This document shows, piece by piece, positions 39,274 through 59,000 of a stretch of 64,000 bases of DNA. Position 1 is the stretch's first letter; the number at the start of each line of letters is the position of its first letter. Position numbers and translations under genes: made by a program. Under the pieces are notes generated by a model that ran no database searches, was not told where the DNA came from, and saw nothing but the letters and a program-made list of their open reading frames with translations. Origin of the DNA: an uncultured Candidatus Saccharibacteria bacterium (lineage in GTDB: Bacteria; Patescibacteriota; Saccharimonadia; CAZHVB01). The DNA lies in contig CAZRIY010000001.1 in the NCBI GenBank assembly GCA_964600295.1, positions 24,810-88,809 of the forward strand, read 5' to 3'.

Positions 39274-39278
39274 TTTAA

Positions 39279-40070
39279 CTATCTTAGCAAGCCAATGGCT
39301 ATAACCAGAATGGCCAAGCCAATGCGGTAATAGGCAAAGACGGCTAGTTTATGCTTGGCCAAGAATTTTAGCAAGAAATCTATGGCTAAATAGCCACTAA
39401 TGGCAGCAGCTAGGATACCGACCATAAAAACGCTTATGTTTGATGTTATATTACCAACGTTACCGCTGAAGCTAAGCTTTAATATTGCCCCAAAAGTTAC
39501 CGGTATCGCCAACAAAAATGAGAACCTAGCTGCAGCTTCGCGGCTAAACCCCAGCCACCTACCGGCCACAATGGTAATACCAGACCGCGATACGCCGGGG
39601 ATTAGGGCTAAACCTTGAGCCGCACCGATTGCCAGGGCGCTAGGGTTGTTCATTTTTTCTACGTCTTTAGAGCCGGGTAAACGATCTACCCAAAGCATCA
39701 CTAAGCCGACTACTAATAGGTTGAATGCCACAAGACCAGTGGAACGCAGCGAATCTTCGGCCAGCGGCTGGAGCAATAACCCCAAAATTATTGCCGGTAC
39801 AGTGCCCAAGGCTATATATAACCCCAACCGCCGGTCTCCTCCCTTGAAAACTGCAGTTAAGATCCCGGCGATCTCTTTGCGGAAATAGATAACCAGGGCC
39901 GCCAGCGTTCCGATATGCAACATGACGTCAAACAATAAGTCGCCAACTGGCGCGTTAAACAGCTTCTCGGCCAGGATCAAATGGCCAGAGCTGGATACCG
40001 GAATAAACTCGGTCAACCCCTGGATAATCCCCAAAATGAGCGCCCACAGTAACATAGTTACAAGATACAA
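39279..40070 (-). CDS. uppP: Undecaprenyl-diphosphatase
   Basis: GLTEFIPVSSSGH and PGVSRSG motifs. Eight TM segments. Confidence 0.85.
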   Translation of the reverse strand: MYLVTMLLWALILGIIQGLTEFIPVSSSGHLILAEKLFNAPVGDLLFDVMLHIGTLAALVIYFRKEIAGILTAVFKGGDRRLGLYIALGTVPAIILGLLLQPLAEDSLRSTGLVAFNLLVVGLVMLWVDRLPGSKDVEKMNNPSALAIGAAQGLALIPGVSRSGITIVAGRWLGFSREAAARFSFLLAIPVTFGAILKLSFSGNVGNITSNISVFMVGILAAAISGYLAIDFLLKFLAKHKLAVFAYYRIGLAILVIAIGLLR

Positions 40071-40085
40071 GAGACAAGAAGCAAG

Positions 40086-40439
40086 TTACAACTTTTTGCC
40101 CGTATTAATTATCATGCTCGATAGGATGTTCTTTAACTCATTCGCCTCTGTTTTAAGCCGATTGATTTCTAAGGCAACCTTCTGATTGGCAGCCTCCAAA
40201 AGTTCTAGCCAATGCATAACTTCCTTAGCTTCTTTACGAGCGATCTTCAGCCTATGTAGGAAGTCGTTCTTGCCGAGTGCATCATTGGCCTCTCGATAGT
40301 TGGCCCCAACGGAGCCGGCAGAACCTACCAGCTGAGAGATTAGACGACTATTAACAACATCTTTTGGCAGCTTCTTGCAGAAACGGACCACCTCAACGCC
40401 AAAGTCGGTACTTCGTTTCTCGAAGTCATAGCTAGCCAA
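40086..40439 (-). CDS. Four-helix-bundle protein (23S rRNA intervening-sequence protein family)
   Basis: About 117 aa, all alpha-helical, with the conserved GS.GANY.EA core. Confidence 0.7.
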   Translation of the reverse strand: MASYDFEKRSTDFGVEVVRFCKKLPKDVVNSRLISQLVGSAGSVGANYREANDALGKNDFLHRLKIARKEAKEVMHWLELLEAANQKVALEINRLKTEANELKNILSSMIINTGKKL

Positions 40440-40476
40440 TTTGTATCCTTGTATCTTGTTGCTTGGAACTTACCAA

Positions 40477-41049
40477 CTACTGTTGGTTGAGACCTTCGTA
40501 GCAGGCCTTGGTGGAATCGTCGGTCTTGAGGTACTCGTTGATGGCTTGAACCACCTTGGATTCAGGCTTTAGCTCTTCCCAGAACAACACCTGATCGCGA
40601 TTGATGGTCATCTTATCTACCGGGCAATGCAATTCCGAGCGTCCAAGCTTGACCAGGGATACGCCGGGCTGCTCAGTTTGCTGCTGGCTGGCGGGCGGCT
40701 GTACCCTCTCCTGAACCTGGAGATAGTAGATGTTGGCTAGTTGCAACTGATCGGCTTCGACAGTTGGCAGATGGCCAAAATAGACCTGGCCATTGGTTAG
40801 AAAAACGGCAAACCATTTATCGGTAGTTTTCTGGCTGGTGGTAGTGCCAGTTGAGCTATCTTCGTTGTTCTTCATCATCGAGAACAGCAGAATTCCGCCT
40901 ACCAGTAGCACTACGGCTGCAACCAATAACAGTCCCAAAGAGCCTACTGAACGCCGACGCACAGGTGGTGGTAAAGGTCGGTGGTGCTGCGGGCTGGGTT
41001 CGCTGCTATTAGATTGATTGACGGTCGGCATGTCCGGCTCGTTATCCAT
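40477..41049 (-). CDS. Hypothetical membrane-anchored protein
   Basis: Pro-rich N-terminus, one TM, extracellular domain containing Cys. Confidence 0.4.
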   Translation of the reverse strand: MDNEPDMPTVNQSNSSEPSPQHHRPLPPPVRRRSVGSLGLLLVAAVVLLVGGILLFSMMKNNEDSSTGTTTSQKTTDKWFAVFLTNGQVYFGHLPTVEADQLQLANIYYLQVQERVQPPASQQQTEQPGVSLVKLGRSELHCPVDKMTINRDQVLFWEELKPESKVVQAINEYLKTDDSTKACYEGLNQQ

Positions 41050-41133
41050 ACAACTCCTTTTGTCTCTTAAAGCTTATGTATTGCTTATAATTTTCTAGCT
41101 TAAAGGATCAAGCCTATTGATGCAACCCTGGAA

Positions 41134-44100
41134 CTAGCCCTGAACCTGATAATTGAATATCAGATCAATAGTAGCCGGTTCTTCCAGGTAGATGGTGAAG
41201 CCGGTGGCCGTGGCTTCAATGCGGTAGCGCGGCGCAAAACCGTTGGTGGGGCTAGCTACCACATTCGGCAGGTTGCTGTAGGCTCGAGCAAAGTCGAAAT
41301 GGACCGAGGTGGCCCCAGCCGGAATCGTCAGCTGACCGCGGGTGTCGTTGTTACCCACAGTATGACCCAGGACCTTGAGATCTTGCACAGTAGCCAGTCC
41401 GCTGACAGTCAGCGGGCCAGCCAGCGTAGTCGAACCAGTTACCTTAAGATCAGCCACAGTTGCCAAACCCGTCACTTTAAGATCCTTGGTGGTGGTGAGA
41501 TCGCTAACACTAAGAGATGTAAAGTTGCCGTCGGTCGATTGGGGACTGGTTTGGGCGGGCTGCACGTTATTGGCATTCGAGAGGGTAAACCAACCTGGGT
41601 TAACAAATACCTCAATTGTGCCAGTACCGCCTGCGCTGTATGCCTGTAAAGCCACGCCAACGATTCGGCCAGATGCAGTAGCTTTCATACCAACCCCAGC
41701 TAGTGACGAAGCCGTGATCGGATCGCCCACCGCGATGCTACCACCCTCTGTTGAAACTTTAGTGGGTACCCGACCGATTAGGGCAATTGGATAACCGCCG
41801 TCGCCGCTCCCTAAAACTTGGTGAGGCTGAGTAGACACAATGCCAATAGCACTGGCTTGATAAGCATTGGTAGTCTTAACGACTGAGCTATTGCCACTGG
41901 TTGCCACCAGCTCGCCCGGATGGAGATTTTCATTTGAGGTGTAATTTTCAGCAATATCCGCTCCGTTGGCCGTACAAGTACCAGCCGTCACAATCCCGCC
42001 CTTAACCGCTATGCCATTGAGGGTTTCTCCCGCCGCGCAAGTGGCGGTTATACCCGAAGTACCGCCGTTGCGATAAACGCCTGTTGCATTAATATCGCCA
42101 GTTACATCCAGCGCATAGGCTGGCGCCGAGGCCGTACCGATTGCTAAGCTACCAGCTGAATCAAAGTGGCTAAGTACGGTTCCGGATGAATTTTGCAGCT
42201 GCAGCAGATCAGCGGCCTGCGAAGCTATGCCTCTTATACGGATACCTACATCGTTGACACCTACGCTAGTTACTCGGAGAGTGGCACTAGCATCTATTGC
42301 GTTTGTGCCAGCGGTTAAACGTAAGTTGTTAACCGAATTTCCAGCTACCTGAAAATTATCATCAGTCTTCAAGCTATCAACAGCCGACCGATAGAGGTTG
42401 GTGTCGCCGCCAAAATTAATCCCACCACCTGCGCTAGTGGATGCAACGAAGTTCAGTTTTGCATTACTCGTAACTCCACTACCAATACCCAGATTAGAGT
42501 CGGTAACTAAAAAGCTGGCAGCCGACCGGTAGAGGTTCGTGTCGTTATCGGCCGCTCCGGTGCCGCCAAAGTAGAGTTTGCCTGAACCTTCGATACGGGT
42601 ATCGCCGGCTACATCAAGCTTGAAATCTGGACTGGTGGTACCGATACCGACGTTTCCATTCGATTTAACCGTCAATGTAACATTGGGCGTGAATAATGCG
42701 TCTGCAGTGGTGGCACCTGTCCCGCCGATAAATCTAATGTCTCCTGCCGCACCTGGATAGCTCGCAACCATACCCGAGTAGCCAATTGATGCGTGGGTAA
42801 TGGTGTATCTAAATACTCCACCAGCATCTACATAAAAGTTTGAACCAAATCCGCCTGAGCCGCTATCGGCCCCCGATGTAGTCGCCCAAGAACCGGTAGT
42901 TAGTCTTCTATTGTTCCCGCTCAATATCGCATTTCCTGCAACGTCTAGGCTTGCGCTAGGTGCGGTAGTACCAACACCGACGCGACCATCACCCCTAACC
43001 GTTAGAGCATTGTTAACGTAGCTAGCGCCATAATTGATTGATAACAGGTCATAGCCAGTGCCAGTAGCTCCACTGCCGATCCAGACAATATCGTCGTTTT
43101 GCGTGCCGGAAGGCGCCTCAAAGCGGGCAATTACTGCATTGGCAGCACCATTCTCAACGTGCAATCTGGCCGATGGGACTGTTTCGCCGATGCCGACGTT
43201 GCCGTCGTTGCGAACATAGAGTTTTGAACTATCGGCAGAGTCAGTTACATTCAAGGCCGCAGCTGTATTATCCGCAGTACTGCCCTTTACTACTAGCCTG
43301 GCCGAGGTGGGAGAGGTATTGCCGATGCCCAAATTCCCAGAACCCAGTATCGTCAGTCTTTCGTCTGGAGTTCCCCCACCATTAAAGGTATAAAGGGCCG
43401 TTCTTATTGGTGAACGTCCAGCTACTAAAATATTTTGACCAGATTGTTGCAATGCCAAGGAAGTTACATCATCGTAATTCGCCATCAGATCTACCCTATA
43501 TGATGTAGGGTTATCTGCAGCGGATAATCTTAATTTTGCCCCACCGGCAGCAACAGAACGCTGCAAATGCAATAACACTGACGGATCTGTAGTCCCGATG
43601 CCGACGCTTCCTGCAGGCGTAATGTTTACAACATCGCTTCCACCGACGGTGACCCGAAGATTACCTTCGCTAGTACCATTGGTTTCTTGGATGCCAAAGG
43701 CCCAGTCACGAGCCGTTGTGGTTTCGGCTGCTGTGGATTGGATGTGGAGACTCGTTGGTCCCAGGTAAAGATCGCGCCAACGAGCAGGGGCTGAGCCAAG
43801 ATCGTAGGTATCATCGACTCCGGGCAAGATGTGGCCGGTGACCGTCAGGTTGCCCGTTATGTTCTGACCACCGTTGACAGTAAGAGCACCCCCAACAATG
43901 AAGTTATCGTCGGTTTTGAGAGTATTAGCAGCCGAGCGGTAGAGGTTGGTATCACCCGACGAGTTAGCGTCAAAGATGATTCCCGCAGGACCAACGACGC
44001 CAAAGTCCGATGCATGGAATGAATCGTCGGTCTTGAGAAGGCTAGCACTTGCTCGGTAGAGGTTAGTATCTAAAGCATTGGTGCCGTCTCCCCATTGCAG

Positions 44101-47100
44101 AGTTCCGCCAGCCTGCGCTAGCCATCGAGGAAGAGCATCGCCCGAGACTATGGTAGATAGACCGGTAGCTGCGCTGGTGCTTCTATTGACCCGGAGTTGA
44201 TCATCGGTCTGCAGTAAATCTGCTCCTGCGCGATAAAGATTTGTGTCAATCGTAGTACCATTACCCCATTCCAAAGTACCACCAGATAGAACTCTTAAAC
44301 GCGCAGCTGTATCGCCAATGAGTTTTATGTGTTGGGCCCAGTCACCAGCCGCACTGTTGGTAATATTAACGTAGCTAGCACTGGAGTCTGTCTGAAGTCT
44401 GATTTCTTCGCCAGCTGCATTTGAAACTCGTAGATCATCATCATTTCCCAAGGAAAGCGTGTCAGCAGCGCTGCGGTAAAGATTGGTATCGCCAGCAGAT
44501 CCAAAAAGAATCGTGGGTGATCCCGAAGGTCCAGTCGTTCCGATCCCAACTTGACCTGCTCCAATAGATGCATAGATAGGCTGGCTTGACCAGAATTCAT
44601 CATCAGTACGCAGATTGTTAGCTGCATTGCGGTAGAGATTAGTATCGCCGCCGATCAAAAGACCGCCACTCCCACCCGGGACTGATAGTTGAAGTTGGCC
44701 AGCACCCGAAAGTGTCATAGGGTTGCTAGCATCAGCGAACTGCCACCGGTGGGCCCCACCAGTCGGAGCCCAATAGCGCATAGCAAGCCCTTCACTAGAC
44801 AGACCATAGCCGCTGTCTCCAATCTGGACTGTTGGAACCGTATTAGAATAATTTCCAGAGGAGAGTAATACGGTTGAATTGTTTCGTAGAGTACCATTTA
44901 TATCCAGTTTATAGGTGGGTCCAGTAGTCCCAATCCCAACGTTGCCAACACCATCAATCCGCATTCTTTCGCTATTACCTCCTATAGCAGTTGTGGTGAA
45001 GAACTTCAGCAACCCTTGGTAGTCATCGGCCGTCGCCGACCCCTTAGCCCCCTGAATAGTAGCGAATGAATAAGGGTTAGCGGTATTACCACTCTCACCG
45101 GCAAAACGAAGCGATGGACCAATGTCTACCGCAGCAGCAGTATTGGAAACAAGGGTGACTGCGGAGGTGTCGAAGTTAGCGTTCGGACTGGTACCGACGC
45201 TAATTACTTGTAGTTTGCTTGTCGGCCCTATAGTGCCGATCCCAACATTGCCACTAGATAGAACTGTAATGTGCTGAGATCCGCTACCGTTAGCTCCCAG
45301 ATAAATAGGTCCCGTATTAGAATTCATGTACAGGTTGTGCCCAGAAGCAGATTGGTAAATATTTGCGGCTTGTGCACCAGAGAAGTACAGCTCAAAACCT
45401 GAACCATTTCCGATGTTCAGGGTGCCAGATACATCAGAGGTTGCAATGGAGGCGACTGCGCCCACTCTAAGGTTACCCGAAGATGCCACACAACCTGTAT
45501 CGCTAGCTTCGATGCAAACTCCACCGCCGACTACGTGGAGCCTTGAATCTGGCCCAGTGGTACCGACTCCGACATTGCCACTTGATGCACTTATGGCTAG
45601 AGGAACAGTTCCCGAGAATCCTGAACCTATACCGATCTTAAAGGTATCAAGATCGGCTCCTTGGGCGCCTATGGTCCAGCGGGCTACGCTAGAGTTCTCT
45701 ATAAGCCGAAGGCCGACTTCGTCGGGAGTCGCCGTTTCGGTGCCTATATCGGTATAAGCATCAGCGCCAGCGCCGCCATTATTAAGTAACTGGCCCACTA
45801 CAGAGCCGCTGCTACGTACGTCTAGCGTACGAGCCGGCCCAGTAGTCCCAATCCCCACATTGCCACTAGGCGTGATGTTTACGACATCACTTCCTCCGAC
45901 AGTAACTCTAAGGTTACCTTCGCTGACGCCATCGGTTTCTTGGATGCCAAAGGCCCAGTCCCGAGCGGTGGTGGTTTCGGCGGCTGTGGATTGCAGGTGT
46001 AAGCTGGTTGGTCCAAGGTAAAGATCTCGCCAGCGGGCAGAGGCTGAGCCGAGGTCATAAGTATCATCGGCTCCCGGGAGAATGTGCCCGGTAACGCTCA
46101 AGTTACCGCCCGAGGTTATGCCACCGTCTGCGTAGAAATTACCATCAACCTCCAGGTCGCCCTCTATGAACAAATCATCATCCGAAGCCAGACCATGGCT
46201 GGTGGCTCCGCCCGAATCCGAAATCGCGTTGTAGGCTAGGCCAGTTACCCCACCAATGTTCAGAGTATCCGTATCTGCAAGATAAACTTGTCCGCCCGCT
46301 GGATTTACCGTTAAATCTGCATCCGACGTAATATCGTCTCCATTGACAGTTAAGTCTCCCGTAATCGTAACGTCACCTGTAGTACCGACCGTTACAGCAG
46401 TTAAGACATCGGATTCATTGCGGATTGAGAAACTACCGCCGGGATCGGAACGCAATCGCCAATTTTTAGCAGCAGTATTATTTAGCCCCAAGAAGACCCC
46501 TGGGCTACTTCCCTGTGAAGCTGTTACCGACACTGAGCGTGCAGCGAAATCGGCATCGGCGCCGGACGGAGTTATGGTTAGATCGCCAACATTATCAGTT
46601 CTAAAATCTGTGTAATTAGTGCTGTCCGTATGGGTTAATCGCAACTGGGGATTGGTGGTATCAAGCACCTCGAATTTACGATCCGGGCCTATGGTGTTTA
46701 TGCCCACATTGCCGGTATTTAAGACTGTTAGTCTTTCTTGGAATGCTGACGTGTCAGACGACGAGATTGCCAAGCGGCCCGCTGGTGCCGCACCCTCTGC
46801 ACCCCGTACCTGCCTGAGGGCGCCACCTACGTAGGAGTCTGCGCTAGATGGTGTTAGTAGCAATTCGGCAAACGAACTATTGTTTGTGGTATCACTGTTT
46901 TCGATACGTGCGCCTACGCCGCCCCCAACATTACTGGCCTGTACTTCCAGTTTTTGTGATGGCGAGGTCGTGCCGATACCGAGATTACCAAAACTGTTTA
47001 GGCGCATGCCTTCAACTTGGTCATTACCGCTACCGTACCCAAAAACCAAATCTCCAGGCGCGGTTGAGGCAGTACGATCATGGAAGACCGCCCCTATAGT

Positions 47101-49779
47101 TGGGCCCTTACGAAGAGTGCCGCCAGTGTCATATGTCAGGAAGCCTAGGAGTGCGAGATTGTTGTTTGTGATGTCGCTATTGACTATTTGAGCATAGCGA
47201 TTGGCGGCCGAAGTATATGTAGTAAGAGTGTTGGCCTTTTCAACATGTAGAAGTGCTCCGGGACCTGTGGTACCGATGCCAACGTTGCCACTAGCATCGA
47301 CTACGAACGGGGTTGAATCGGTAAAAGTGCCATCGTCGTTGACACGGAAGGCAGCCGCAGTGCCGGCTTGAGTGATCTCGAAGGTGGTATCGGTAGTAGT
47401 ATCGGTTAGTGTAATCTCAATATCCCGGCCGTCAGAAGTAGCAATGGTATTACCATTGGCATAGGCGTTTTGTAGCGTTACTGAGGGGTCAGAACCGCCA
47501 GAACCGGAACAGGTCGAGAGTTGATTGGAACCGTTGCGGCAGACCGAGGTAGAGCCGGCGGCACCGAGGGTGGTCACCGCCAGAGTACCGGTAAAGTTGG
47601 CAGCGGAAGTGATAGTTTGACCATTGATCGTACCAGAAACCAGCAGATTATCTTGGATATCCACCGTGCCACCAGCATTGACGATTAAAGTGGCGGCAGT
47701 ACTAGTAATATCTCCACCGTTGACGGCCAGATCGCCCGAACCGGCCGCGCAGGCGGTATCACTAGATTCGATACAAACTCCCCCACCAACCACGTGAAGC
47801 TTGGAATCCGGTCCTGCCGTACCGATACCGACGTTGCCGCCATCTTTAACAGCGAGAACGGTGTTGGTACCATCCTGCAAAGTTAAGATATCGCCAGTGC
47901 CATCTTGACGAACATTGAGAGCGGTTTTGTCAAACAGCGCATTATCAGCCCAAAAGATGCCCAGGGCACTTGTTGAGGTTGTTGTGTTGTTCGAATAAGC
48001 GCGAAATACCTGATCGGTTGAAATAGTGCCGTCGATTTCTAATAAAGCGCTGGGGCTATCCAGCCCGTCACCAATGACCACTCGACCGTCGGTATTGATA
48101 CGCATATGTTCGGTGCCACTAGTTTCAAATCCAAGGTCAAAACTATCATTTGTACCGAGCATAGCTACTTCGCCAAAGGAATTGCCGCCCTGGACAAAGG
48201 CTACGCCACTGCCGCTGGTGAAACCGCAGGATGCTGCACCCTGCAGGCAGACTGTACCGCTTTCGTTGGGTAAGGCGTAAGCCCGATTATCTGTTAATGT
48301 TGTGGTCTGTACAGCGCCGGTGAAACCGGAGTTGGTTAGATTTAAGAGGGGTGTGGTTACTGAGGTGCCGAAGGTGGGGTTAGCCACCGTCGCCACCGCA
48401 ATATTACCGTTGGCTCCCCCATCGCTGAGCAACAGGTTAGCACCGGCCGTTAACACCCGCTCGTTGGTTAAACTGGGATTAAGACTGAGGGTAACGTAAT
48501 CGGCACCGGCTGGGGCTGAACCGCCTCCGCCGATGCAGTTGCCAAAATTGGTACAGAAGTCGTAAACCCCAGCGGGATGGGCCGGTACCCGGTAGGTGGC
48601 ATCAGCTACCGGTGGAATGAAGGCTAAGGTGCTGGTAAAGCCACCGCTGGTGGCGGTGAGAGTGGTGGAAGCGTTGCCTTGGAGGGTTAGGGCTTGGTCG
48701 CTGGCACCGATGGTTAAGTCGGCGGTGGGGGTTAGAGTATTAGCGTAAAGAATATCGCCGACTGTTAGGCTGGCCTGGAAAGTATTATTACCGCTGAAGA
48801 CTTGGTCGGCGCGGTCGAGCAGGGCGACGTTGGGGGTCAGACGGGCATCGGCCAGGGTGCCGTGGCTGATGCTGCTGGCATTGAGGTTGGTAATACCAGC
48901 GCCGTCGCCAGCAATAGTAGTAGCACTCAGAGCCTGGAGGTTGGTATTGCCCTGGACGGTTAGATCACCTTCCAGCAAGGAATCCCCATGGACTAGCAGG
49001 CTGCCAAATTCTCCCTCTCCAGAGGTAGTTACGCTGTCAGAACTAAAATCATTAACCGTGACATCACCGAGGTTGCTGGTGCCGGTGACCTCGAGGTTGT
49101 TGATGGTGGCCAGACCGCTGACGTTGAGATCGATGAAATTAGCCAGCCGTCCATCCACTTGATCAACTTTGAGGTTGTTAATCTCAGCCTGATCTTTCAG
49201 ACCAGCCAGGCGGGCTTCAAGCTCGGCTTGCTGCTGTTTCTGGCGCTGGGCCAATTGATTAAGCTTGGTAACTGTACCGAAGATTAGCCAAGCTAATAGG
49301 CCGGCCGATAGCAGAATCAGTAGGATAAGCCAGAGGTGGCGCTTGCGGCTGGGTTCCGGCTCGTCATTGGTTGATTCCCCTGGAGGTTCTGGGGGTGGAG
49401 GCGACGGCTGAGGAATTATTGGCGGTTCTTCCACCATGGGATGGAATACGGGGGGTTGTCCAGTAGTAGAACTTGGATAAGCTACGCTTTGGTCTAGAGA
49501 TCCAACTTCACTACTGGATTGGACGGGCGCAGGTGTAAGCGGCGGAGTTGGGGAGGGCTCTGGAATGGGCTGGCTAGGAACAGTTGGCGGAGGGGTTTCC
49601 GGGGAAGTGGCAGATTGAGCCAGAGGTACTGCTGGAAATTGCGAATTTGTAGGCGGTGAGGGCTGATAAGTTTGGGGAACTGGCGGTAATTGAACCGGAG
49701 CTTCTCGAAAACCGGCAGATGCCCCTCCAATAGTTGAAGGGGCACCGTGAATTTGGCCGAAGATGTTTGTTTCAGTCAT
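41134..49779 (-). CDS. Giant (2881 aa) membrane-anchored repetitive surface fibre protein, tail-fibre-like
   Basis: Pro-rich N-terminus (~150 aa), one TM (HLWLILLILLSAGLLAWLIFG), a coiled coil, then at least 13 GNVGIGTTxPxxKLxV modules. Duplicated ..GHILPGADDTYDLGSAxxRWRDLYLGPTSLH.. units. C-terminal ~110-aa lectin-like domain shared with the next gene. Confidence 0.8.
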   Translation of the reverse strand: MTETNIFGQIHGAPSTIGGASAGFREAPVQLPPVPQTYQPSPPTNSQFPAVPLAQSATSPETPPPTVPSQPIPEPSPTPPLTPAPVQSSSEVGSLDQSVAYPSSTTGQPPVFHPMVEEPPIIPQPSPPPPEPPGESTNDEPEPSRKRHLWLILLILLSAGLLAWLIFGTVTKLNQLAQRQKQQQAELEARLAGLKDQAEINNLKVDQVDGRLANFIDLNVSGLATINNLEVTGTSNLGDVTVNDFSSDSVTTSGEGEFGSLLVHGDSLLEGDLTVQGNTNLQALSATTIAGDGAGITNLNASSISHGTLADARLTPNVALLDRADQVFSGNNTFQASLTVGDILYANTLTPTADLTIGASDQALTLQGNASTTLTATSGGFTSTLAFIPPVADATYRVPAHPAGVYDFCTNFGNCIGGGGSAPAGADYVTLSLNPSLTNERVLTAGANLLLSDGGANGNIAVATVANPTFGTSVTTPLLNLTNSGFTGAVQTTTLTDNRAYALPNESGTVCLQGAASCGFTSGSGVAFVQGGNSFGEVAMLGTNDSFDLGFETSGTEHMRINTDGRVVIGDGLDSPSALLEIDGTISTDQVFRAYSNNTTTSTSALGIFWADNALFDKTALNVRQDGTGDILTLQDGTNTVLAVKDGGNVGIGTAGPDSKLHVVGGGVCIESSDTACAAGSGDLAVNGGDITSTAATLIVNAGGTVDIQDNLLVSGTINGQTITSAANFTGTLAVTTLGAAGSTSVCRNGSNQLSTCSGSGGSDPSVTLQNAYANGNTIATSDGRDIEITLTDTTTDTTFEITQAGTAAAFRVNDDGTFTDSTPFVVDASGNVGIGTTGPGALLHVEKANTLTTYTSAANRYAQIVNSDITNNNLALLGFLTYDTGGTLRKGPTIGAVFHDRTASTAPGDLVFGYGSGNDQVEGMRLNSFGNLGIGTTSPSQKLEVQASNVGGGVGARIENSDTTNNSSFAELLLTPSSADSYVGGALRQVRGAEGAAPAGRLAISSSDTSAFQERLTVLNTGNVGINTIGPDRKFEVLDTTNPQLRLTHTDSTNYTDFRTDNVGDLTITPSGADADFAARSVSVTASQGSSPGVFLGLNNTAAKNWRLRSDPGGSFSIRNESDVLTAVTVGTTGDVTITGDLTVNGDDITSDADLTVNPAGGQVYLADTDTLNIGGVTGLAYNAISDSGGATSHGLASDDDLFIEGDLEVDGNFYADGGITSGGNLSVTGHILPGADDTYDLGSASARWRDLYLGPTSLHLQSTAAETTTARDWAFGIQETDGVSEGNLRVTVGGSDVVNITPSGNVGIGTTGPARTLDVRSSGSVVGQLLNNGGAGADAYTDIGTETATPDEVGLRLIENSSVARWTIGAQGADLDTFKIGIGSGFSGTVPLAISASSGNVGVGTTGPDSRLHVVGGGVCIEASDTGCVASSGNLRVGAVASIATSDVSGTLNIGNGSGFELYFSGAQAANIYQSASGHNLYMNSNTGPIYLGANGSGSQHITVLSSGNVGIGTIGPTSKLQVISVGTSPNANFDTSAVTLVSNTAAAVDIGPSLRFAGESGNTANPYSFATIQGAKGSATADDYQGLLKFFTTTAIGGNSERMRIDGVGNVGIGTTGPTYKLDINGTLRNNSTVLLSSGNYSNTVPTVQIGDSGYGLSSEGLAMRYWAPTGGAHRWQFADASNPMTLSGAGQLQLSVPGGSGGLLIGGDTNLYRNAANNLRTDDEFWSSQPIYASIGAGQVGIGTTGPSGSPTILFGSAGDTNLYRSAADTLSLGNDDDLRVSNAAGEEIRLQTDSSASYVNITNSAAGDWAQHIKLIGDTAARLRVLSGGTLEWGNGTTIDTNLYRAGADLLQTDDQLRVNRSTSAATGLSTIVSGDALPRWLAQAGGTLQWGDGTNALDTNLYRASASLLKTDDSFHASDFGVVGPAGIIFDANSSGDTNLYRSAANTLKTDDNFIVGGALTVNGGQNITGNLTVTGHILPGVDDTYDLGSAPARWRDLYLGPTSLHIQSTAAETTTARDWAFGIQETNGTSEGNLRVTVGGSDVVNITPAGSVGIGTTDPSVLLHLQRSVAAGGAKLRLSAADNPTSYRVDLMANYDDVTSLALQQSGQNILVAGRSPIRTALYTFNGGGTPDERLTILGSGNLGIGNTSPTSARLVVKGSTADNTAAALNVTDSADSSKLYVRNDGNVGIGETVPSARLHVENGAANAVIARFEAPSGTQNDDIVWIGSGATGTGYDLLSINYGASYVNNALTVRGDGRVGVGTTAPSASLDVAGNAILSGNNRRLTTGSWATTSGADSGSGGFGSNFYVDAGGVFRYTITHASIGYSGMVASYPGAAGDIRFIGGTGATTADALFTPNVTLTVKSNGNVGIGTTSPDFKLDVAGDTRIEGSGKLYFGGTGAADNDTNLYRSAASFLVTDSNLGIGSGVTSNAKLNFVASTSAGGGINFGGDTNLYRSAVDSLKTDDNFQVAGNSVNNLRLTAGTNAIDASATLRVTSVGVNDVGIRIRGIASQAADLLQLQNSSGTVLSHFDSAGSLAIGTASAPAYALDVTGDINATGVYRNGGTSGITATCAAGETLNGIAVKGGIVTAGTCTANGADIAENYTSNENLHPGELVATSGNSSVVKTTNAYQASAIGIVSTQPHQVLGSGDGGYPIALIGRVPTKVSTEGGSIAVGDPITASSLAGVGMKATASGRIVGVALQAYSAGGTGTIEVFVNPGWFTLSNANNVQPAQTSPQSTDGNFTSLSVSDLTTTKDLKVTGLATVADLKVTGSTTLAGPLTVSGLATVQDLKVLGHTVGNNDTRGQLTIPAGATSVHFDFARAYSNLPNVVASPTNGFAPRYRIEATATGFTIYLEEPATIDLIFNYQVQG
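48370..49140. repeat. About 0.75-kb segment ~98% identical to 60777-61547 (direct repeat between the two giant genes)
   Basis: Identical antisense ORF peptides appear in the ORF track at 48830 and 61063. One 60-nt comparison (48841-48900 against 61248-61307) shows a single mismatch. Confidence 0.7.
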
Positions 49780-50033: not shown

Positions 50034-53000
50034 TCATTGTTGCACCATATAATCGAACGTTAGATCGGCGGTTGTAGGTTCGGCAAGATGGATGACAAAA
50101 CCGGTGGCAGTTTTTTCAACCCAGTAAAAGCTGCCGGGGTTGGCTTGAGCGCTAACCACCACGTGGGGTACCCCACCGTAGGCGCGGCTAAAACTGTAGC
50201 TGGCGCTAGTAGCCCCGGCGGGAATTGTGAGAGTCCCTCGTGTATCAGCGTTGCCAATCACGTGGCCACTGATGACGATGTCGCCCACGCTGGTTAAGCC
50301 GGTAACCTTGAGTTCGGCTATGGTGGCTAGGCCAGTAACTTCCAACTTGGCAGAGGTTACCAGCTGCACCACCTTCAGTTCGTTGGCGGTAATGGTGTTG
50401 GCTACATTAAGATCGCTAAAGTCGGAGTTGTTCTGAATCGCCTCAGCATCCGTTTCGGCCTGGGCTGGGCCTTCAGTCTCCGCCTGAGCCTCATCACCTG
50501 GCTGGGCGTCCTCAACTGGTTCGAGTTGGCTCAGCCGTTGATCTAGCTCATCCACCCGCAGCTTAAGTTCGGCGGTGGCCTGGATGTTGTAGATGGGCAG
50601 GGCGCTGAAATTAATTTGTTTAAAGCCTAGGGAGTCCATGGAGACCAATTCTGGGAACAGGGCCTCAACTTCTTGGGCAATCAAACCTTGTTGGGTGGCG
50701 GTCCCCAGGTGACGATCGGGGAATTCCTCGGCCCGCCAGTTGTAAGTAACCGCCCGCAGCTGGCCAAAACGGTCCAGAATCGGTTCGAAGCCTTGAATGT
50801 TGGTCTTGAGGCGTTCGTCTGAGGAACAGGTGCCGGCAATCACGGTACCGTCCGCATCCTCCACACAGCCGTCCGTACCTATACCAACTCGCACATTTCC
50901 GGCCACCACTAATTTTTGAGCCGAGGGATCCGTAGTGCCGATGCCGACGTTGCCAGTACTATCAATGCGCATTCGTTCGGCATTATTTGTACCAAATAAC
51001 AAAGGTGTAGCTCCGAACGTGCCTATACCAAGCGAGGTATCACCTGCAGATACAATGTTAGTGGTGTCGGTAGCTGCCCGTCCGAAGTAACTAACCCCAG
51101 TGTAGGTGGGACCAAAGGCATACGTTTCTAGACTTGCTCCGCCGCTGGCGGTGTTTCTAACGGTCGATGCAGCGTATTTGGTGGTGGAGGTCGCTGTGAG
51201 GAATTGCAGAACATTGGCATCGGTTGATTCGGAAACCTCGAGTTTACCGGCAGGTCCAGTTGTGCCAATGCCGACGTTGCCGGCGCTTGTGACACGCATG
51301 CGCTCCGCAAGCGTGCCCGTGTTGGGATTTGTGTAAAATAGCAATGCCCCTGATTCATCTCCAGCTGTGGCATTTTCTTTTTGTCCCCAAATCCCGGCGA
51401 AGACAGCTTGGGCTGATTGAGCAGTTTTATAACCCTTAAATAACAAGCTTCCGCCGACACCAGCTGCTGCGGTTCGAGTATCATTGAGGATTTGGCTCCA
51501 GCCAGTACCGGTTAAACTTGGTGCTGTACCCGAAGCCACTTCCAGCCTAGCGGCGGGAGTAATAGTGCCGATGCCGACGTTGCCATCGCCCCTGAGCACT
51601 AGGATATTATCTGTGTTTAAGCCTCGAAACCCTAATAAATCATTCGGCGTTGATGCGTCTAGGTCGGTCTCGATAAAGAATCGATCTGTTTTATCACTGG
51701 CGGCAAAAATTAATCTTTTATCATCAACAGTTTCTCCGCCAGCGATTTCAATCTCACCGTTTACTTCTAGTTCTTCACTCGGACTATTAGTGCCAATACC
51801 GACTAGACCACCATTGAGAATCGTCATGTTAACGGCTGAACCGGTACCAAACTGTAAGGCAAAATTACCGGCCTTGGCACCTAATAGAGTGGCGTTTGCT
51901 AATGCATTGGTAAAGCTTGCGCCCGATGAATCTTGGCCAGCAGTTTGGATAGTACCAAGTATCGAGGTAACCCCGGCATTATCCTGCGAGAAAGATATAT
52001 AGGATGTACCAACTTCGCCCCCGTCGTTATCTGTATCTGCAGTTAGTAGTAAGGCGCTGTTGGCTCCGCTTTGGACCGCTATAGTTTCATTAGCAGTGGT
52101 ATTGGTACCCACTACTAAACGGCCCTCGGTAGGTGTGCTGTCACCGATCCCAACATTGCCTGAAGATTCCAGAACAGTTAGGTGGGTAGTTGCCGCACCA
52201 GCGTTGCGGACATTAAAGCTACTGCCGGCCCCCAAATCGTTAAAGATGCCGGGGGCCGTCAGGATGATTGAACCATTGGTTCCCGTAATGAAGTTGTTTG
52301 TAGCCCCTGCACTAACGGTAAGCCCTTGGGTCGTTCCATCAGAGCGATAGAAGCGAAGTGTGCCCGCGTTATTCAGACGGACATCACCGGTCACATCAAG
52401 TTTGAACCCAGGACCCGTATTACCAATACCAACGTTGCCGGTTGCACCATCGCCATATAGGAAGGTGGTGGCAAAGGTATTGGGAGTTGACTGATCGACT
52501 ACTCCCAGTTGGAAGTCGGCACCTGTACCTCCGCCGAAGGCAGAACTGAGTTTTATGGCTGAGGTACCGAGTGTGCCACTATCGCTATTTGTGAGTAGCA
52601 GACCGCCCTCAAAAGCCGTGCCGCTATCTGAAAGTATGGTTGTGTGATCGGCATACGCTGGCGTGGCACTAACATTGCCAAGTTTGGAACCACCGGAAAC
52701 CCTTAAGTTGCCGCTGGCAGATGCGCATCCAGTGTCACTAGATTCAATACAAACTCCGCCCCCAACGACATGTAATCGAGAATCTGGCCCCGTGGTGCCA
52801 ATCCCGACGTTGCCGTTTTCATCAATCCTCATCCTTTCTGTTGGTGATCCACCATTGGCAGTAGAAAAGCGTAAAGAACCAACGGGATTGACAGTCAGAG
52901 CATCCTCTTTATTACTACAAATATTAGCAGTTCTTTTATCTGCTCCGCTCAATCCGGTAGAACCAAACTGCATGCAACCCATAAGTGAGGTGTCCCCAGT

Positions 53001-56000
53001 CGCGGCGCTGGAAAGGACGAGATTACCGAAGGACGCTGTAGTAGTACCCGCGTTATGAACTTGAAGGTCTGTTCTAGTACCGCCCCCTCCCAGGCCACCT
53101 GGCGCAGTAGTCCCGATGCCGACGTTGTTACCAGCAGTTACATATAGCGCATTGTTATTGACATTGAAGATACCGTTAGTGTTTGCGCTAACAGCGACCG
53201 TACCGCCATCGCTATTTAAGTGTAAGGTACTGGCGGCACCGTTGTTTCGCGCCAGGATTTCGTTATCATCCATGGTTATGTTAGTGCTAGTAGTGGATCC
53301 GGTTACCAAGTAACCTCCACTGGCCAAGGCAGAATCTGTACCACCAACTACGTGAAGTTTTGCGGACGGATCGATAGTGCCTATGCCAACGTTGCCACCC
53401 GATGGCTGCAGATTTAGATTGTAGGCAGTTGCGGTACCATCAGTTCTTTGCGCCTGTAGCCACGGGTCGCCATCTCCGGCAACTCCAGCTAGCAAACCGT
53501 AGTTCACATCAGTATTCGTTAGGTAAAAACCTCCGCTTGCTGAACCTAGTGTGGGTGAGTTTACGGCTGTCGAACCAGTGATTTGCAGCCGCACTTTTGG
53601 TGCAGCAGTACCAATACCTACATTGCCGGTTACATTCAGTGAGGCCGTATGGGCGGAGTTGGTGATTAGTCCGGTGGCTACAGTGGGCGAGCCACCCTGC
53701 AAGGTATCGGCATAAACCGCAGCAGTAGTGCCGGCATGGAACTGGACGTTATCCAGGCGAATGGTCTCGGCTATACCTTCGGTGAATCGCAATTTGGCAT
53801 AGGCAGTATTGGCCGGGGCGGTGCCAGTAACGGTAACTTTTTGCCAGCCACTGACACCAGTAGTGGCAGTGATGGTAGCACTTTCGCCCAATGATACTTG
53901 ACTAGCATCAAACCAAAGAATTCTGACCCGCCAGTTGCCCCCAAGACTGCCATCTTGGGCCTTCAGCCAATAGTTGCCGATATAGTCGGCGGCGGCGGTA
54001 GCAGGCATAAAGTCGCTCTCAAGAAAGTGAGTGCCCGTAGCATCGCTGACCATTTCCAGGGCGTAGCGGCCGCCGCCGCCCGTTTCGGCCACGGCAGTGG
54101 GTCCGCCGGACAGGGACCAGTTGGTGGTGTTACCGCTTTCAAAGCCAGAATTGGGTACTAGGTTGGTGGTGTCGCTATTTACAAAACCGGCGAGACCATT
54201 GAGAACCTGGACATTACCGGCCACATCTAATTTATAGGTGGGGGTGGTTGTACCGACTCCTACGTTACCGGTGGAATCTATCACCAATCTTGCAGTACCT
54301 TCATCGGCAATGGCAAAGCCACCCGGGAAGGAATTACCCGATCCTCCAATTGTAAGATCCCAGTTGCTGCCTTCGGTGCCATGAGTTAGACGCATACCAT
54401 TTAATCCAGTGCCGCCGGCTCCTTGGACTTGGAGACGAGTACCAGTACCGGTGATAGAAGTAGTGCCTATGCCGATGTTGCCAGCAAAGTATGAGTTCCC
54501 AATACCGGTTACGGTGAGTTCTCCGATAGTGGTTAAACCTTTGGGCACAGCAGTTGAAAGTGGGCTAAAGGCTAGCGGAGTACTACCAGTGTTAACCTGT
54601 ACGTTATCGAAATAAACAAATTTGCCAACTGTGGGTGCACTTGTTGTACGTATATGTATTGTCCCGGTATTGTCACTTGCAGTTGTAAGGATCATGGTAA
54701 CCCGCTGCCACTGATCTCGCAGACTCATATCAGCGTTGTATTTAGTTTGGGTAGAACCGGCAAAACCTCCATCATCTCCGATAGTTATTTGGCCACCGTC
54801 CCAATCTGCTGGCACGTATACATAGAAATACATTGAGTAAGTAGTGGTTGCGGCCAAGACCAGTGTAGGTGGAAGGGCTAGCCGGTTATCATCTTGATAT
54901 GTAGCCTTTAGTGAGTAGAGGCCGTGAAGAGCTTGATCAGTAACTGAGGCAATAGTATTGGTTCCCCGCTGCGCCCAACCGCTGGTGGAGGCATTTTCGA
55001 CGCTTGGATTTGATATTAAGTTGGTTAACCCACCACCAAAGCCACCATATGTTTGTACAAAATCATGATCAGTTTGTGATTGCAGGATATCCCCTCCTTG
55101 CAAGTCAAGCTTAGCTTGGGGAGCAGTAGTGCCAATTCCGACATTGCCACCAGGAGTGATATTTACAAGATCAGATCCACCCATGGTGACTCTCAGGTTA
55201 CCTTCGCTGGCCCCATCAGTCTCTTGAATGCCAAAGGCCCAGTCCCGGGCCGTGGTGGTTTCAGCGGCAGTAGATTGAATATGCAAGCTAGTGGGTCCGA
55301 GATAAAGATCTCGCCAACGGGCTGCCGCTGAGCCCAGATCGTATGTATCATCGGCTCCGGGCAGAATGTGGCCAGTGACGGTTAGGTTGCCGCCAGAGGT
55401 TATACCGCTATCCGCATACAGTGTGCCGTTAACTTCTAGATCGCCCTCGATAAATAGGTCGTCATCCGAAGCCAAACCATGGCTGGTAACTCCGCCTGAA
55501 TCCGAAATTGCGTTGTATCCAAGCGCGGTTACCCCGCCGATATTCAAGGTATCACCATCCGCAAAATAGACTTGCCCGCCGGAAGGATTAACAGTTAGGT
55601 CTCCGCCACTATCGGCCTGGAATTCGGTGTAAACCGAGCCATCGGTGTGTGTGAGGCGCAGCTGAGGGTTGGAGGCATCCAGTACATCCAGCTTGCGATC
55701 TGGCCCTGTCGTATTGATGCCGACGTTTCCGGCATTATTTATACGCATACGCTCGGCTTCAGTCGCAGAACCATCTGGCGTTGTATAAAACTGCAAACGG
55801 CCAGGCATATCGCCATCCCCAGGAGTCGCATCAACTGCAGCAACTATTCTAGCGGCCGTTTCGTATGAATTGGCATCATAGCCGGTAAATGAGAGCCCTC
55901 CAATGGAGTCGCCAGAAGATACAACAGCTGGGGACCCAAGGCTACCACGAGATTTTCTGACTTGAAGCGCTACACCGTTGGCGTCCGCACTGGCGCGCTC

Positions 56001-59000
56001 AAACAGACCATTGGTACCCGAACTCAAAGCCGTGTGCAGTAAGGCTCCTGGACTAGTCGTACCGATACCCACATTACCGCTGTTGAGAATTGTCAGGATC
56101 TCTGCCGCTCCAAGGTTGTTTATGAAATGATAATCATTTGCTTGAAAGCGCAGAGCGGTGTTGGCTGTGCCCGCATCGTTGAGCGCACTCAGCCGTACCT
56201 GCGAAGCGGAGGTAGATATTGTGAAGTTTTGGTCGGTTCCAACCCTCACATGAAGAGGTGCTTGAGGAGTGATAACCCCAACACCAACACCACCCGAAGC
56301 TTTCAAAGTAAGGATGTTAGCGGTATTAAAAGCAGTACCCGCATCATTAGTGGAGTTGAACGAAAGGATACCATCAGTGGTGCCGTTATCAACAAAGAAT
56401 ACTCGTTGCCCCGAAGTAGAACCCGTGTTTTCAAAATATAGCCTGTTTTTGCCGCTGGTTCCCGAGCTTGAAGTTAGAATCAACCCTTCGTCAGCATTGG
56501 GAATCGTTATACCACTTGAACCACTGCCCACTACGTGTATTTTTCCTAGAGGGCTGGTGGTGCCAACGCCCAGTTTGCCTGAAGCATCTACCACAAAGGG
56601 CGTGGAATCCGAGAAGGTTCCGTCATCGTTAACTCTGAAAGCCGTAGCAGTACCAGCTTGGGTAATCTCGAAGGTGGTATCGGTAGTTTGATCAGTCAAT
56701 GTAATTTCAATATCCCGCCCATCGGTTGTCGAGATAGTATTGCCATTGGCATAGGCGTTCTGCAATGTTACCGAGGGGTCAGAACCGCCCGAACCCGAGC
56801 AAGTGGCAAGTTGATTTGAACCGTTGCGGCAGACTGAGGTGGAGCCGGCGGCGCCTAGCGCGGTGACGATTACATTACCGGAAGAGTTAACCCCAAAAAG
56901 ATCGCCAGATCCGACGGTAAGTAGATATGCAGGAGAGGTATCACCAATGCCGACCCTGCCTGTGTTATCTATCCGTAACCTCTCAGCATTACCATCGCGG
57001 TAAACAAATGGAATAACTGATGTGCTGCTAGTTGATGAGATGCCCTGTAAACCATTTATATTGTCGACAAAAATGCCAAGCCGACGATTATTTGTGCCGT
57101 CATTAAGGTAAGTAGAAATACCGGCGATACCGGACGTTTGGCTGTTTATAACTTGCGGAGTAAATCCTGTGCCTACTCCATCAGGTAGAGTTGAAGTCAA
57201 CCCTGCACCAATCTGGAGTGCAACACCAGGGTTAGTTGTACCAATGCCGACATTACCGTTTTGATCTATTGTCATCCGCACGCTCGGGGTTGGAGATGCC
57301 CCAGCATCATTAGGGGTAGTATAGAATGCTAACTTCGCACCCGAATCGGTATCAGCACCATATCCTTCAGTAGTTAAAGCTTCTATTTTGGCTACAACCT
57401 TGGGATTGGTTGTAGTAAAACTGGTATCATTTGAAGCAAATTGAATAACACCCAAGACATCATCTGTTGCACTGCTCGACACATCCCCACCTAGTCGAAG
57501 AATCGCTGAAGAACCGGGATTTGCAGATACATCCAATTTTACCGCCGGGCTTGTAGTACCGATGCCGACGAAACCTAAATCTGATCCGGCACCACCTTTA
57601 ATCGTCACTCGAGTTCCGGTAGTATCGCCTGTTCTGAAAATTAAATCATCGCTAGAAGTTCCTCCCTGAAGCTGCAACGGACCACCCGAAGACATGACAG
57701 TGAGCGACCCTGTGCCTGTACTATCTATCTTGTAGTTCCCAACAGAAGTATGCGTTATATCAACCCCATCGGATCGGCCCGCCCCCTGTGAGCGAATGCC
57801 CGTATCGCTTCTTACGTGTAGCGAGGTGCCAGGCGCTGTGGTGCCGATGCCGACGTTGCCGGTTGGTGTTACGTTAATTACATCGCTTCCCCCGACGATT
57901 ACCCGTAGGTTGCCTTCGCTGACTCCATCGGTTTCTTGGATGGCAAAGGCCCAATCTCTAGCTGTTGTGGTTTCAGCCGCGGTAGATTGAAGATGCAAGC
58001 TAGTGGGTCCCAAGTAGAGATCGCGCCAGCGGAGGGCGGCAGACCCCAGATCGTAGGTATCGTCGGTAGCAGGTAGCAAATTGCCTGCTAGAGTCGTGGC
58101 GGAACTAGTTACCGCTAAGTAGCTGGTGCTACCAGCATTGTTCTGGACTTCCAGCAGGTTGGCACCAATGGGTGTGGCGTTGTCCCGAACCGTTAGGGCA
58201 CCACGAGTAGCGTCTAGAGTGATTTCGGGAGAGGTTGAAGCGTTGTAGGCGGTTTGGAGGGTGGCAGCACCACCCCCAGTTAGACAGTTACCAGCAGTGG
58301 AACAAAGATCGTAGGTGCCGGCAGCGGCATCAGCCAGGCGGTAGGTAATGTCGGCAGTGGGGTTAACAACCGACAGTACGGTTTCACTGGCATCAGCACT
58401 GGTCCCTTCCCAAATCAAGCTAGCATCGCTCTGGACACCAAAGAGGTCACCATTACCGACGGTTAGAAGATAAGCCGGAGTTGTATCGCCGATACCAATG
58501 CTGCCACCGTTAGCGGAGTCAACTGTTAGTACCCGCACGTAGTTGGTAACTCCGCCAGTGGTGTCCGTATCTATATCAAAGCCGAGCTCGTCGTCGGCGC
58601 CATTTATATCACCAGTACGAAGAACCATGGAACGATTAATTGGGCCAGTTATGTTGTTGACTAAATCCGCTGTATTACTAAGCACCAAATCACCCGCGCT
58701 GGTAATCTTTAGGCTTTGCTCCATTACATCGTCCAGTCGGGTATTAAACACCAAATCGGCATCCGCCGTGCTGGCCGATCCCGTTGTCCAAGTATCAGTC
58801 TTGACCGCGTCGATTTGTGCGGCCGAGCGAAATGCACTAGCTCCCGACAGAGATAAACCAAAATCTATCCTTGTCCCAGCCGAGGTACCAACATCGATAT
58901 TTGCTATCCTTAGGGCCGTTGCGGTTGAGTTAGCGCTAGTGGGGTATACTTCTAGTTTTGCTGTGGGGCTGGCGGTACCTATGCCGACGTTGCCGGTAGC

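Follow-up and report, generated by a model that had tools for sequence, protein, structure and literature searches.

Two giant genes that lie in tandem on the minus strand of a 64-kb window, taken from a 236,763-bp contig of the chromosomal DNA of a bacterium, share a repeat of about 0.8 kb that is probably the cell-proximal base of two paralogous giant surface fibres. The window is the whole stretch of DNA analysed here, and nucleotide positions refer to it unless another contig is named; aa stands for amino acids. The likely history of this base module is an old exchange between the two genes rather than the work of an active variation system, and no sign was seen of a mechanism that varies the genes in a programmed way or at present. 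The open reading frames (ORFs) of gene 1 and gene 2 are uninterrupted for 8.6 kb and 12.9 kb, respectively, and the elements under discussion are located as follows.

41134-49779, minus strand: gene 1, intact ORF for a giant fibre protein of 2881 aa without an S74 domain
50034-62942, minus strand: gene 2, intact ORF for a giant fibre protein of 4302 aa with a carbohydrate-binding module and an S74 domain
48349-49146, minus strand: base module, gene 1 copy, about aa 212-477, from blastn against the gene 2 copy
60757-61553, minus strand: base module, gene 2 copy, about aa 464-729, from blastn against the gene 1 copy

When the region from 41 to 63 kb was compared with itself, the base module came out as the top match and as the strongest similarity between the two genes. 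A direct repeat had been predicted at 48.37-49.14 and 60.78-61.55 kb, and blastn confirmed it (E = 0), with the two copies collinear, in frame, and about 12.4 kb apart. The accompanying estimate of about 98% nucleotide identity was wrong; the copies agree at 85.0% over 801 aligned columns of DNA and at 84.5% over 260 ungapped codons, and their proteins are 86% identical in a gap-free alignment of 280 aa of the base region and 88% identical in a core of 268 codons (gene 1 aa 205-472). The agreement varies along the module, the best 90-nt windows reaching 93-94% and the worst 71-72%, and the longest exact matches measure 56, 50, and 30 nt. A 60-nt sample with a single mismatch, which the original prediction had offered as support, probably came from the best stretch, with its exact runs of 56 and 50 nt. 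At the 3' boundary the similarity ends abruptly, passing from 88% identity directly into unalignable sequence.

The evidence for an exchange comes from synonymous sites. Over the 268-codon core, the number of synonymous substitutions per site (dS) is 0.66 and that of nonsynonymous substitutions per site (dN) is 0.073, i.e., a dN/dS of 0.11, whereas in the other modules common to both genes dS ranges from 1.1 to saturation. At identical residues, both copies of the base use the same codon in 68% of cases, where codon usage would lead one to expect 33% (z = 11.9); the corresponding values for the other shared modules are 33-56%, with z from -0.3 to 4.3. Runs of 18 and 16 identical codons occur within the base, and their length exceeds the permutation expectation (P = 0.011 for the longest, P = 0.0007 for the two longest together). 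A segment-based heterogeneity test of codon sharing inside the module was not significant (P about 0.10). A second, independent tandem pair of related giant proteins (L007; 2799 and 4527 aa), encoded on a forest-soil contig, served as a control. The region following its membrane helices is 69% identical in protein, and its synonymous sites are near chance (same codon 0.49 versus 0.41 expected). Since the base of this pair is kept in protein while its codons are near chance, protein constraint alone gives no codon sharing. Judging from both pairs, constraint on the protein of the base appears to be a trait of the fibre family.

The lower dS, the excess of shared codons, and the abrupt end together indicate that the two copies of the base module go back to a more recent ancestor than the remainder of the genes does, and this points to gene conversion or a segmental exchange that postdates the divergence of the genes. 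This putative exchange must be old, because a dS of 0.66 has accumulated since, and values of this size are found between distinct bacterial species or genera. The proposal that the identity of the repeat implies recombination therefore holds in one half: a past exchange is favoured by codon sharing of 68% versus 33% and by a dS of 0.66 versus at least 1.1, but ongoing homogenisation, for which the false premise of 98% had been adduced, is not. Calculated for each module, dN/dS was 0.07-0.13 everywhere, which denotes purifying and not diversifying selection. On the preferred reading, the two genes are mosaics of modules of different ages.

The internal cassettes of the long fibres are more diverged than the base. 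Three LCRNGSNQL..SDPSVTLQNAY modules had correctly been recognised in gene 2, and gene 1 holds one more; the two units ending in RWRDLYL per gene were likewise correctly counted (DDTYDLGS..RWRDLYL, twice in each gene).

47290-47679, minus strand: CRNGSNQL..SDPSVTLQNAY cassette of gene 1, aa 701-830, motif at aa 747 and 763
60222-60611, minus strand: CRNGSNQL cassette, gene 2 copy a, aa 778-907
59388-59777, minus strand: CRNGSNQL cassette, gene 2 copy b, aa 1056-1185
56580-56969, minus strand: CRNGSNQL cassette, gene 2 copy c, aa 1992-2121
45880-46359, minus strand: GHILPGADDTYDLGS..RWRDLYL cassette, gene 1 copy a, aa 1141-1300, motif at aa 1238 and 1249
43630-43899, minus strand: GHILPG..RWRDLYL cassette, gene 1 copy b, aa 1961-2050
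57876-58145, minus strand: DDTYDLGS..RWRDLYL cassette, gene 2 copy a, aa 1600-1689
55164-55643, minus strand: GHILPG..RWRDLYL cassette, gene 2 copy b, aa 2434-2593
42091-42225, minus strand: ADLLQLQNSSGTVLSHF module of gene 1, common to gene 2 at 59679-59813

As whole modules, the cassettes are 63-82% identical in protein and 61-75% in DNA, and their best blastn cores reach 73-83%. The CRNGSNQL cassette of gene 1 matches gene 2 copies a and c at 67% and 74% of protein and at 64% and 68% of DNA positions (dS of at least 2), and copy a of the RWRDLYL cassette in gene 1 matches copy b in gene 2 at 82% of protein and 74% of DNA positions (dS 1.8).

Antisense ORFs of 110 and 173 aa run over the best-conserved third of the base module. 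Their peptides had been reported as identical, but they are only similar (101 of 108 residues, 94%). This conservation is automatic, because the antisense frame has third codon positions in common with the sense frame, as follows from coordinate arithmetic. Gene 2 also has antisense ORFs of comparable size (156-173 aa) outside the repeat, and on both grounds the antisense ORFs were rejected as real genes. An RNA element behind the nucleotide conservation was also sought, and no Rfam family was found inside either gene.

Both giant proteins have a common build, i.e., a proline-rich N terminus, one hydrophobic helix, a coiled-coil-like linker, the shared module, and a long fibre. The proline-rich stretch comprises 148 residues in gene 1 and 406 residues in gene 2.

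49336-49779, minus strand: proline-rich N terminus of gene 1, before the membrane helix
49267-49335, minus strand: membrane helix of gene 1, aa 149-171; best 19-residue Kyte-Doolittle window from aa 149, 2.69
49147-49266, minus strand: coiled-coil-like linker of gene 1, after the membrane helix
61725-62942, minus strand: proline-rich N terminus of gene 2, 406 aa, opening with a CxxC...CxxxC motif
61656-61724, minus strand: membrane helix of gene 2, aa 407-429; best Kyte-Doolittle window from aa 407, 2.37
54648-55022, minus strand: carbohydrate-binding module in the fibre of gene 2, aa 2641-2765; Pfam CBM_4_9, E = 6e-7, 30.3 bits against a cut-off of 25.9
50643-50822, minus strand: S74 intramolecular chaperone/self-cleavage domain of gene 2, aa 4041-4100, with 'SSDERLK'; Pfam Peptidase_S74, E = 1e-13

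Basic residues precede the helix in both proteins, and with RKRH on its N-terminal side the helix of gene 1 is predicted by the positive-inside rule to be oriented N-in. The long fibre region carries 13 'GNVGIGT'-type motifs in gene 1 and 21 in gene 2, and it links both proteins to known fibres. The PHROG tail-fibre families 9942 and 18345 matched gene 1 with E values of 1e-20 and 2.8e-20 and gene 2 with 1e-73 and 1e-68. In phmmer searches of the PDB sequences, the mosaic adhesive trimer (MAT) fibre chains of Bdellovibrio were found with gene 1 (8ond, i.e., Bd2133, as well as 8oml, 8ojn, and 8on4, with E from 2.7e-8 for 8ond to 1.5e-3) and with gene 2 (8ol4 with E = 5.2e-7, 8ond, 8oml, 8ojn, and 8on4), the latter also matching the long tail fibre chain 6f45. 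The alignments with the MAT chains run through '..ERMRI...GNVGIGT.P..KL.V' units in both proteins. The C-terminal fragment of gene 2 matched Peptidase_S74 with E = 2.4e-15, and its S74 region also matched PHROG 33119 and PDB 6f45, while gene 1 has a different C-terminal region ahead of the last domain common to both genes. No Pfam family reached an E value of 0.01 with gene 1, and relaxed Pfam thresholds brought no gain for the N-terminal parts, the C-terminal parts, or the base module. At 90% clustering, both giant proteins are singletons.

Two details of gene 2 deserve mention in their own right. Its first 27 residues (62861-62942, minus strand) contain 'CQVCG...CSDRC', which may form a metal-binding zinc ribbon of the treble-clef type and is predicted to lie in the cytoplasm; a comparison with the treble-clef family DUF2116 gave a weak, sub-threshold match (E = 0.04), and gene 1 has no CxxC...CxxxC motif. 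Furthermore, the S74 domain is not terminal (50034-50822, aa 4041-4302). About 200 residues, including an acidic coiled-coil-like stretch, follow it, and the last domain of about 100 aa is about 52% identical to the C terminus of gene 1 (aa ~2780-2881, 41134-41442), which has no S74 domain. If S74 cleaves as in phage fibres, the common last domain would be freed from gene 2 and kept in gene 1.

From this architecture, the following scenario can be proposed. Each protein would consist of a cytoplasmic proline-rich N terminus, a membrane helix, a coiled-coil-like linker, an all-beta base of about 266 aa, and a very long fibre built from 'ERMRI...GNVGIGT.P..KL' units homologous to phage tail fibres and MAT beta-helix units; gene 2 would add at least one carbohydrate-binding module and the S74 chaperone/self-cleavage domain. 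The base may have been conserved since both fibres are inserted, assembled, and held at the same envelope, and the outer fibre and tip presumably diverged for different host-cell ligands. Long ago, after the divergence of the genes, gene conversion or segmental recombination would have carried a copy of the base across from one gene to the other, and purifying selection would have acted on it ever since.

Four features close to the genes are of interest with regard to possible variation mechanisms.

40086-40439, minus strand: 23S_rRNA_IVP four-helix-bundle protein, 117 aa, just downstream of gene 1, Avd-like; Pfam E = 4.6e-19
62986-63015, minus strand: promoter-like site of gene 2, TTGACA-18-GATAAT, 11 of 12 sigma-70-like matches, a consensus match only
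63415-63687, plus strand: GIY-YIG ORF, 90 aa; Pfam E = 6e-17
From 63687: N terminus of a tyrosine recombinase, based on an N-terminal SAM-like domain (E = 4e-12), running off the window end

Searches with both genes by tblastn and blastn revealed no extra, silent, or truncated cassette copies in the rest of the 64-kb window. The 23S_rRNA_IVP family includes the Avd proteins of diversity-generating retroelements (DGRs), and the Avd-like gene beside gene 1 prompted the consideration of a DGR target, which was rejected on the ordinary mismatch spectra. The spectra of five repeat pairs showed no adenine bias, 84 of the 122 mismatches in the base module are transitions, and no reverse transcriptase was found among the scanned ORFs of the window. 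An invertible promoter or recombinase switch was likewise rejected. A promoter-like site is present upstream of each giant gene, and that of gene 2, about 45 nt upstream of the start codon, is not flanked by inverted repeats (63015-62986), the only notable inverted repeat being the one that brackets the GIY-YIG ORF. The tyrosine recombinase gene starts 745 nt upstream of gene 2, and no link to the repeat was found.

The repeat had been regarded as an architecture of antigenic or adhesin variation. With no silent cassettes in the window, both ORFs intact, dN/dS at 0.07-0.13, and neither a DGR nor an invertible promoter, this view could not be upheld. The repeats are also a poor substrate for length variation, given that exact repeats inside a single gene reach at most 27 nt in gene 1 (43681 and 45934) and 23 nt in gene 2. 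Low-rate conversion may still be running, or population variants may exist.

The suggested role as a hotspot of assembly errors holds for small k only. Both genes have 48 exact 31-mers in common, but no 57-mer. An exact 32-mer (42179-42210 and 59767-59798), which lies in the ADLLQLQNSSGTVLSHF module and encodes part of ADLLQLQNSSGT, is also common to both genes. A Logan contig of 3.6 kb (L006, k = 31), found through a neighbouring gene and covering gene 1 only at its 3' end, is 100% identical to 38621-42208 and ends at 42208, inside this shared 32-mer. An exact look-up of gene 1 on contigs had nothing on record, and a literature search found no paper naming the run SRR6868922, which carries a fragment identical to part of the window.

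With respect to relatives, a profile of both base copies gave 2038 matches at E <= 0.001 among 1.84 billion representative proteins, all of them to sub-motifs only (profile positions ~90-145, 138-234, and 224-272) and often with many repeats per protein. Giant proteins of 2000-4600 aa, anchored in the membrane through a hydrophobic helix near the N terminus, account for many of the top matches. Among 5.8 billion proteins, the base module was covered to at most 40%, and to 26% by the best hit. A scan of genome contigs yielded five partial motif matches only, of Patescibacteria type (Spechtbacterales, Paceibacterota), from unclassified bacteria, and from one archaeal metagenome-assembled genome; a scan of metagenome contigs for the base module yielded nothing, and no PDB relative of the ~266-aa module was detectable. 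These matches suggest that the base module is a particular concatenation of widespread fibre sub-domains, and that its two copies are each other's closest relatives.

Related membrane-anchored giants are encoded directly downstream of atpC, the gene for the ATP synthase epsilon subunit, on three unrelated metagenome contigs, i.e., L007 (1020-23584), L008 (277-8513), and L009 (9625-15061). In L007 they form the tandem pair mentioned above, and the synteny with atpC is absent from the window. A mosaic pattern like that of genes 1 and 2 was seen in the protein pairs P0146/P0152 and P0149/P0164, which are either paralogues or orthologues: N-terminal parts of 900-1800 aa are about 73-75% identical, the middle is unalignable, and the later part is 61-65% identical. 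No paper on tail-fibre-like giants in Saccharibacteria was found in a literature search.

How else might the repeat have arisen? A history without any exchange is unlikely. A single duplication of the gene pair would then account for all modules, the base seeming younger through slower synonymous change while the rest diverged fast, and the slow-down would have to be ascribed to selection on codons, on mRNA structure, or on an overlapping antisense gene. The 94% identical antisense ORFs of 110 and 173 aa over the best-conserved third of the base fit such a history, as do the strong purifying selection on its protein and the conservation of the base in the L007 pair. However, the antisense conservation is automatic and has counterparts elsewhere in gene 2, the genes hold no Rfam family, the synonymous sites of the L007 base are near chance, and an abrupt end beside unalignable sequence is typical of a recombination joint. 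Somewhat harder still to sustain is the notion that ongoing gene conversion or recombination keeps the repeat alike and that, with the cassettes, it serves antigenic, adhesin, or length variation. The base is indeed the least diverged segment between the genes, its identity is patchy, with codon runs above permutation expectation (P = 0.011 and 0.0007), and its exact runs of 56 and 50 nt exceed the minimum for RecA-type recombination, which is roughly 25 nt in Escherichia coli; a tyrosine recombinase gene, moreover, is situated about 750 nt upstream of gene 2. Yet the identity is 85% and not 98%, dS is 0.66, dN/dS is 0.07-0.13 in all shared modules, silent and partial cassettes are absent from the rest of the window, the exact repeats inside gene 1 and gene 2 do not exceed 27 and 23 nt, the promoter-like site of gene 2 is without inverted repeats, and the mismatch spectrum is ordinary. 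In the bacteria studied, a divergence of 15%, as between the two copies, strongly suppresses homologous recombination.

An origin as prophage tail-fibre genes, with the repeat as the conserved virion-attachment end of two alternative fibres, has little to recommend it. The PHROG tail-fibre and S74 chaperone matches are in its favour, and so is the layout, as phage fibres as a rule have a conserved N-terminal and a variable distal part. On the other hand, 148 or 406 proline-rich residues followed by a strongly hydrophobic helix fit a cell-membrane anchor, the flanks are housekeeping genes without any for capsid, tail, or baseplate, and the related giants on three contigs stand beside the ATP synthase operon. 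Least credible of all is an assembly artefact, by which a chimeric or collapsed join of two similar loci would have created the repeat. The 48 shared 31-mers and the break of an independent k = 31 assembly at the shared 32-mer could be read in this way, but copies that differ at 15% of positions and have no 57-mer in common are not collapsed, the ORFs stay open for 8.6 and 12.9 kb, and the Logan contig is 100% identical to 38621-42208, albeit for the 3' end of gene 1 only.

Several points weigh against the interpretation as the base of two tandem fibres with an old exchange. Synonymous change in the base may be slower for a reason other than exchange. No orthologue of the whole base module was present in the searched databases, so that no tree confirms the exchange. 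An AlphaFold2 model of the module, computed as a single chain from a two-sequence alignment, was unusable (mean predicted local distance difference test score [pLDDT] of 39.3, predicted template modelling score [pTM] of 0.26). Silent cassettes could be located elsewhere in the genome, the search having covered 64 kb of the 236,763-bp contig. Finally, membrane orientation, trimer formation, surface display, and an adhesin function with host binding are features that we infer from the sequences.

A further idea about the patchy identity is doubtful, but has specific consequences. The patches might have been left by repeated gene conversion of short tracts within the base alone, and recombination between the repeats might occasionally delete 12.4 kb. 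If short-tract conversion took place, the two fibres would stay compatible with a single shared partner for anchoring or assembly, and their outer parts would be free to diverge. If the deletion occurred, it would generate a chimera of the gene 2 N terminus and the gene 1 fibre, and cells would display different fibre sets.

For the preferred reading of conserved bases on giant paralogous fibres, the closest known counterpart is the MAT family. The MAT fibres of Bdellovibrio bacteriovorus are trimers on the predator surface with a conserved cell-proximal N-terminal domain and exchanged C termini; the family has S74 and non-S74 (NS74) subgroups, and in its members a signal peptide is directly followed by a conserved beta-rich N-terminal domain of about 130 aa (Caulton et al. 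2024, PMC10769870). The fibre repeat units of genes 1 and 2 align with Bd2133 and related chains. Further likenesses are the combination of paralogues with a conserved cell-proximal N-terminal part and mosaic distal parts, the presence of one S74 member (gene 2, 'SSDERLK', an SDxxxK motif) and one member without S74 that resembles NS74 (gene 1), and the setting in a bacterium that needs to recognise other bacteria. Unlike MATs, which have roughly 1000 aa, the two proteins are 3-4 times longer, a predicted membrane helix, preceded by a long proline-rich stretch in the cytoplasm, anchors them in place of a signal peptide, their ~266-aa base module has no detectable PDB relative, and the host is Saccharibacteria-like and not Bdellovibrio, with trimer formation and surface display presumed for genes 1 and 2. 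Scaled up from the ~55 nm modelled for a MAT fibre of ~920 aa, the two fibres might measure on the order of 100-250 nm.

Phage tail fibres and tailspikes, e.g., the K1F endosialidase, the T5 L-shaped fibre, and the distal subunit of the T4-like long tail fibre (6f45), are similar in their PHROG profiles, in an S74 domain with an SDxxxK-type motif, and in a modular mosaic whose proximal end is conserved and whose distal parts vary. They differ in that genes 1 and 2 are chromosomal among housekeeping genes and encode proteins with a predicted membrane anchor, and in that S74 occurs in gene 2 only and is followed by about 200 residues, including the last domain common to gene 1. Neisseria pilE/pilS, Borrelia vlsE, and Mycoplasma genitalium MgPa/MgPar are antigenic variation loci that operate by gene conversion. 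Here too, repeated and partly homologous segments lie close together, and at least one segment has probably moved between copies. In contrast to these loci, genes 1 and 2 have no silent or truncated donor cassettes in the window, their base is only 85% identical and no near-identical guide segment, their modules are under purifying selection, and both genes are complete, each with a promoter-like site.

The giant surface proteins of predatory or episymbiotic bacteria, namely those of Omnitrophota (bioRxiv 10.1101/2023.11.21.568195), and those numbered P0145-P0292 resemble the two fibres in being very long, repeat-rich, membrane-anchored, and proposed to function in cell adhesion, and in the assembly fragmentation that repeats cause. 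The Omnitrophota proteins differ by their HEAT/TPR or dockerin content and lengths of >30,000 aa, genes 1 and 2 being far shorter and having other domains. Within P0145-P0292 and L007-L009, the L007 genes again form a tandem pair in which the N-terminal region is conserved, but only base sub-motifs are common to these proteins and genes 1 and 2, and L007-L009 follow atpC, which genes 1 and 2 do not.

The window has the gene content of a bacterial chromosome, including threonyl- and arginyl-tRNA synthetases (ThrRS, ArgRS), MurT, UppP, Ndk, a PilB-type ATPase, transfer-messenger RNA (tmRNA), RNase P RNA, and seven tRNAs. The sequences closest to ThrRS are 59-67% identical, and the named ones belong mostly to Saccharibacteria or Saccharimonadales; by this marker, the host organism appears to be Saccharibacteria-like. 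The giant pair is flanked by housekeeping genes for UppP, Ndk, a NUDIX protein, a PrsA-like peptidyl-prolyl isomerase, a Cu/Zn superoxide dismutase, and tRNAs, as well as ThrRS and MurT, and no capsid, tail, or baseplate families were detected among the scanned ORFs of the window. The tmRNA at 6183-6578 (minus strand), whose tag peptide is AKSIFAKLANVFNVQQFAPAVA, and the RNase P RNA at 13755-14123 (plus strand, class A, 231 bits) are ordinary housekeeping RNAs.

Upstream of gene 2, an AT-rich spacer (62943-63414) has a GC content of about 36% (measured over 62943-63497) versus 47-52% elsewhere, and it contains a 12-nt direct repeat, TGTCGTACAATC, at 63357 and 63387. Two inverted repeats of 21 nt, at 63396-63416 and 63668-63688 (86% complementary), exactly enclose the adjacent GIY-YIG ORF. 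The ORF ends at the start codon of the tyrosine recombinase gene, and together with its inverted repeats it looks like a small inserted cassette. A second candidate trace of mobile DNA lies at a distance, where a protein with a Replic_Relax (replication-relaxation) domain (27214-28062, minus strand; Pfam E = 4e-12) is encoded near two tRNA genes and may be the remnant of an integrated mobile element.

25151-25227: tRNA-Val gene
25903-25979: tRNA-Val gene

The repeat itself is ordinary, namely a conserved domain of mosaic adhesin-like paralogues combined with an old exchange. The locus as a whole represents a Saccharibacteria-like genome with two putatively membrane-anchored giants, whose repeat units share homology with phage tail fibres and with the fibres by which Bdellovibrio recognises its prey. 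Apart from type IV pili and a few adhesins, little is known of the means by which Saccharibacteria and other ultrasmall episymbionts recognise host cells (PMC10633639). Genes 1 and 2 are reasonable candidates for host-recognition fibres of an episymbiont, and their design, in which the base is conserved and the outer parts vary, would provide a defined module for tests.

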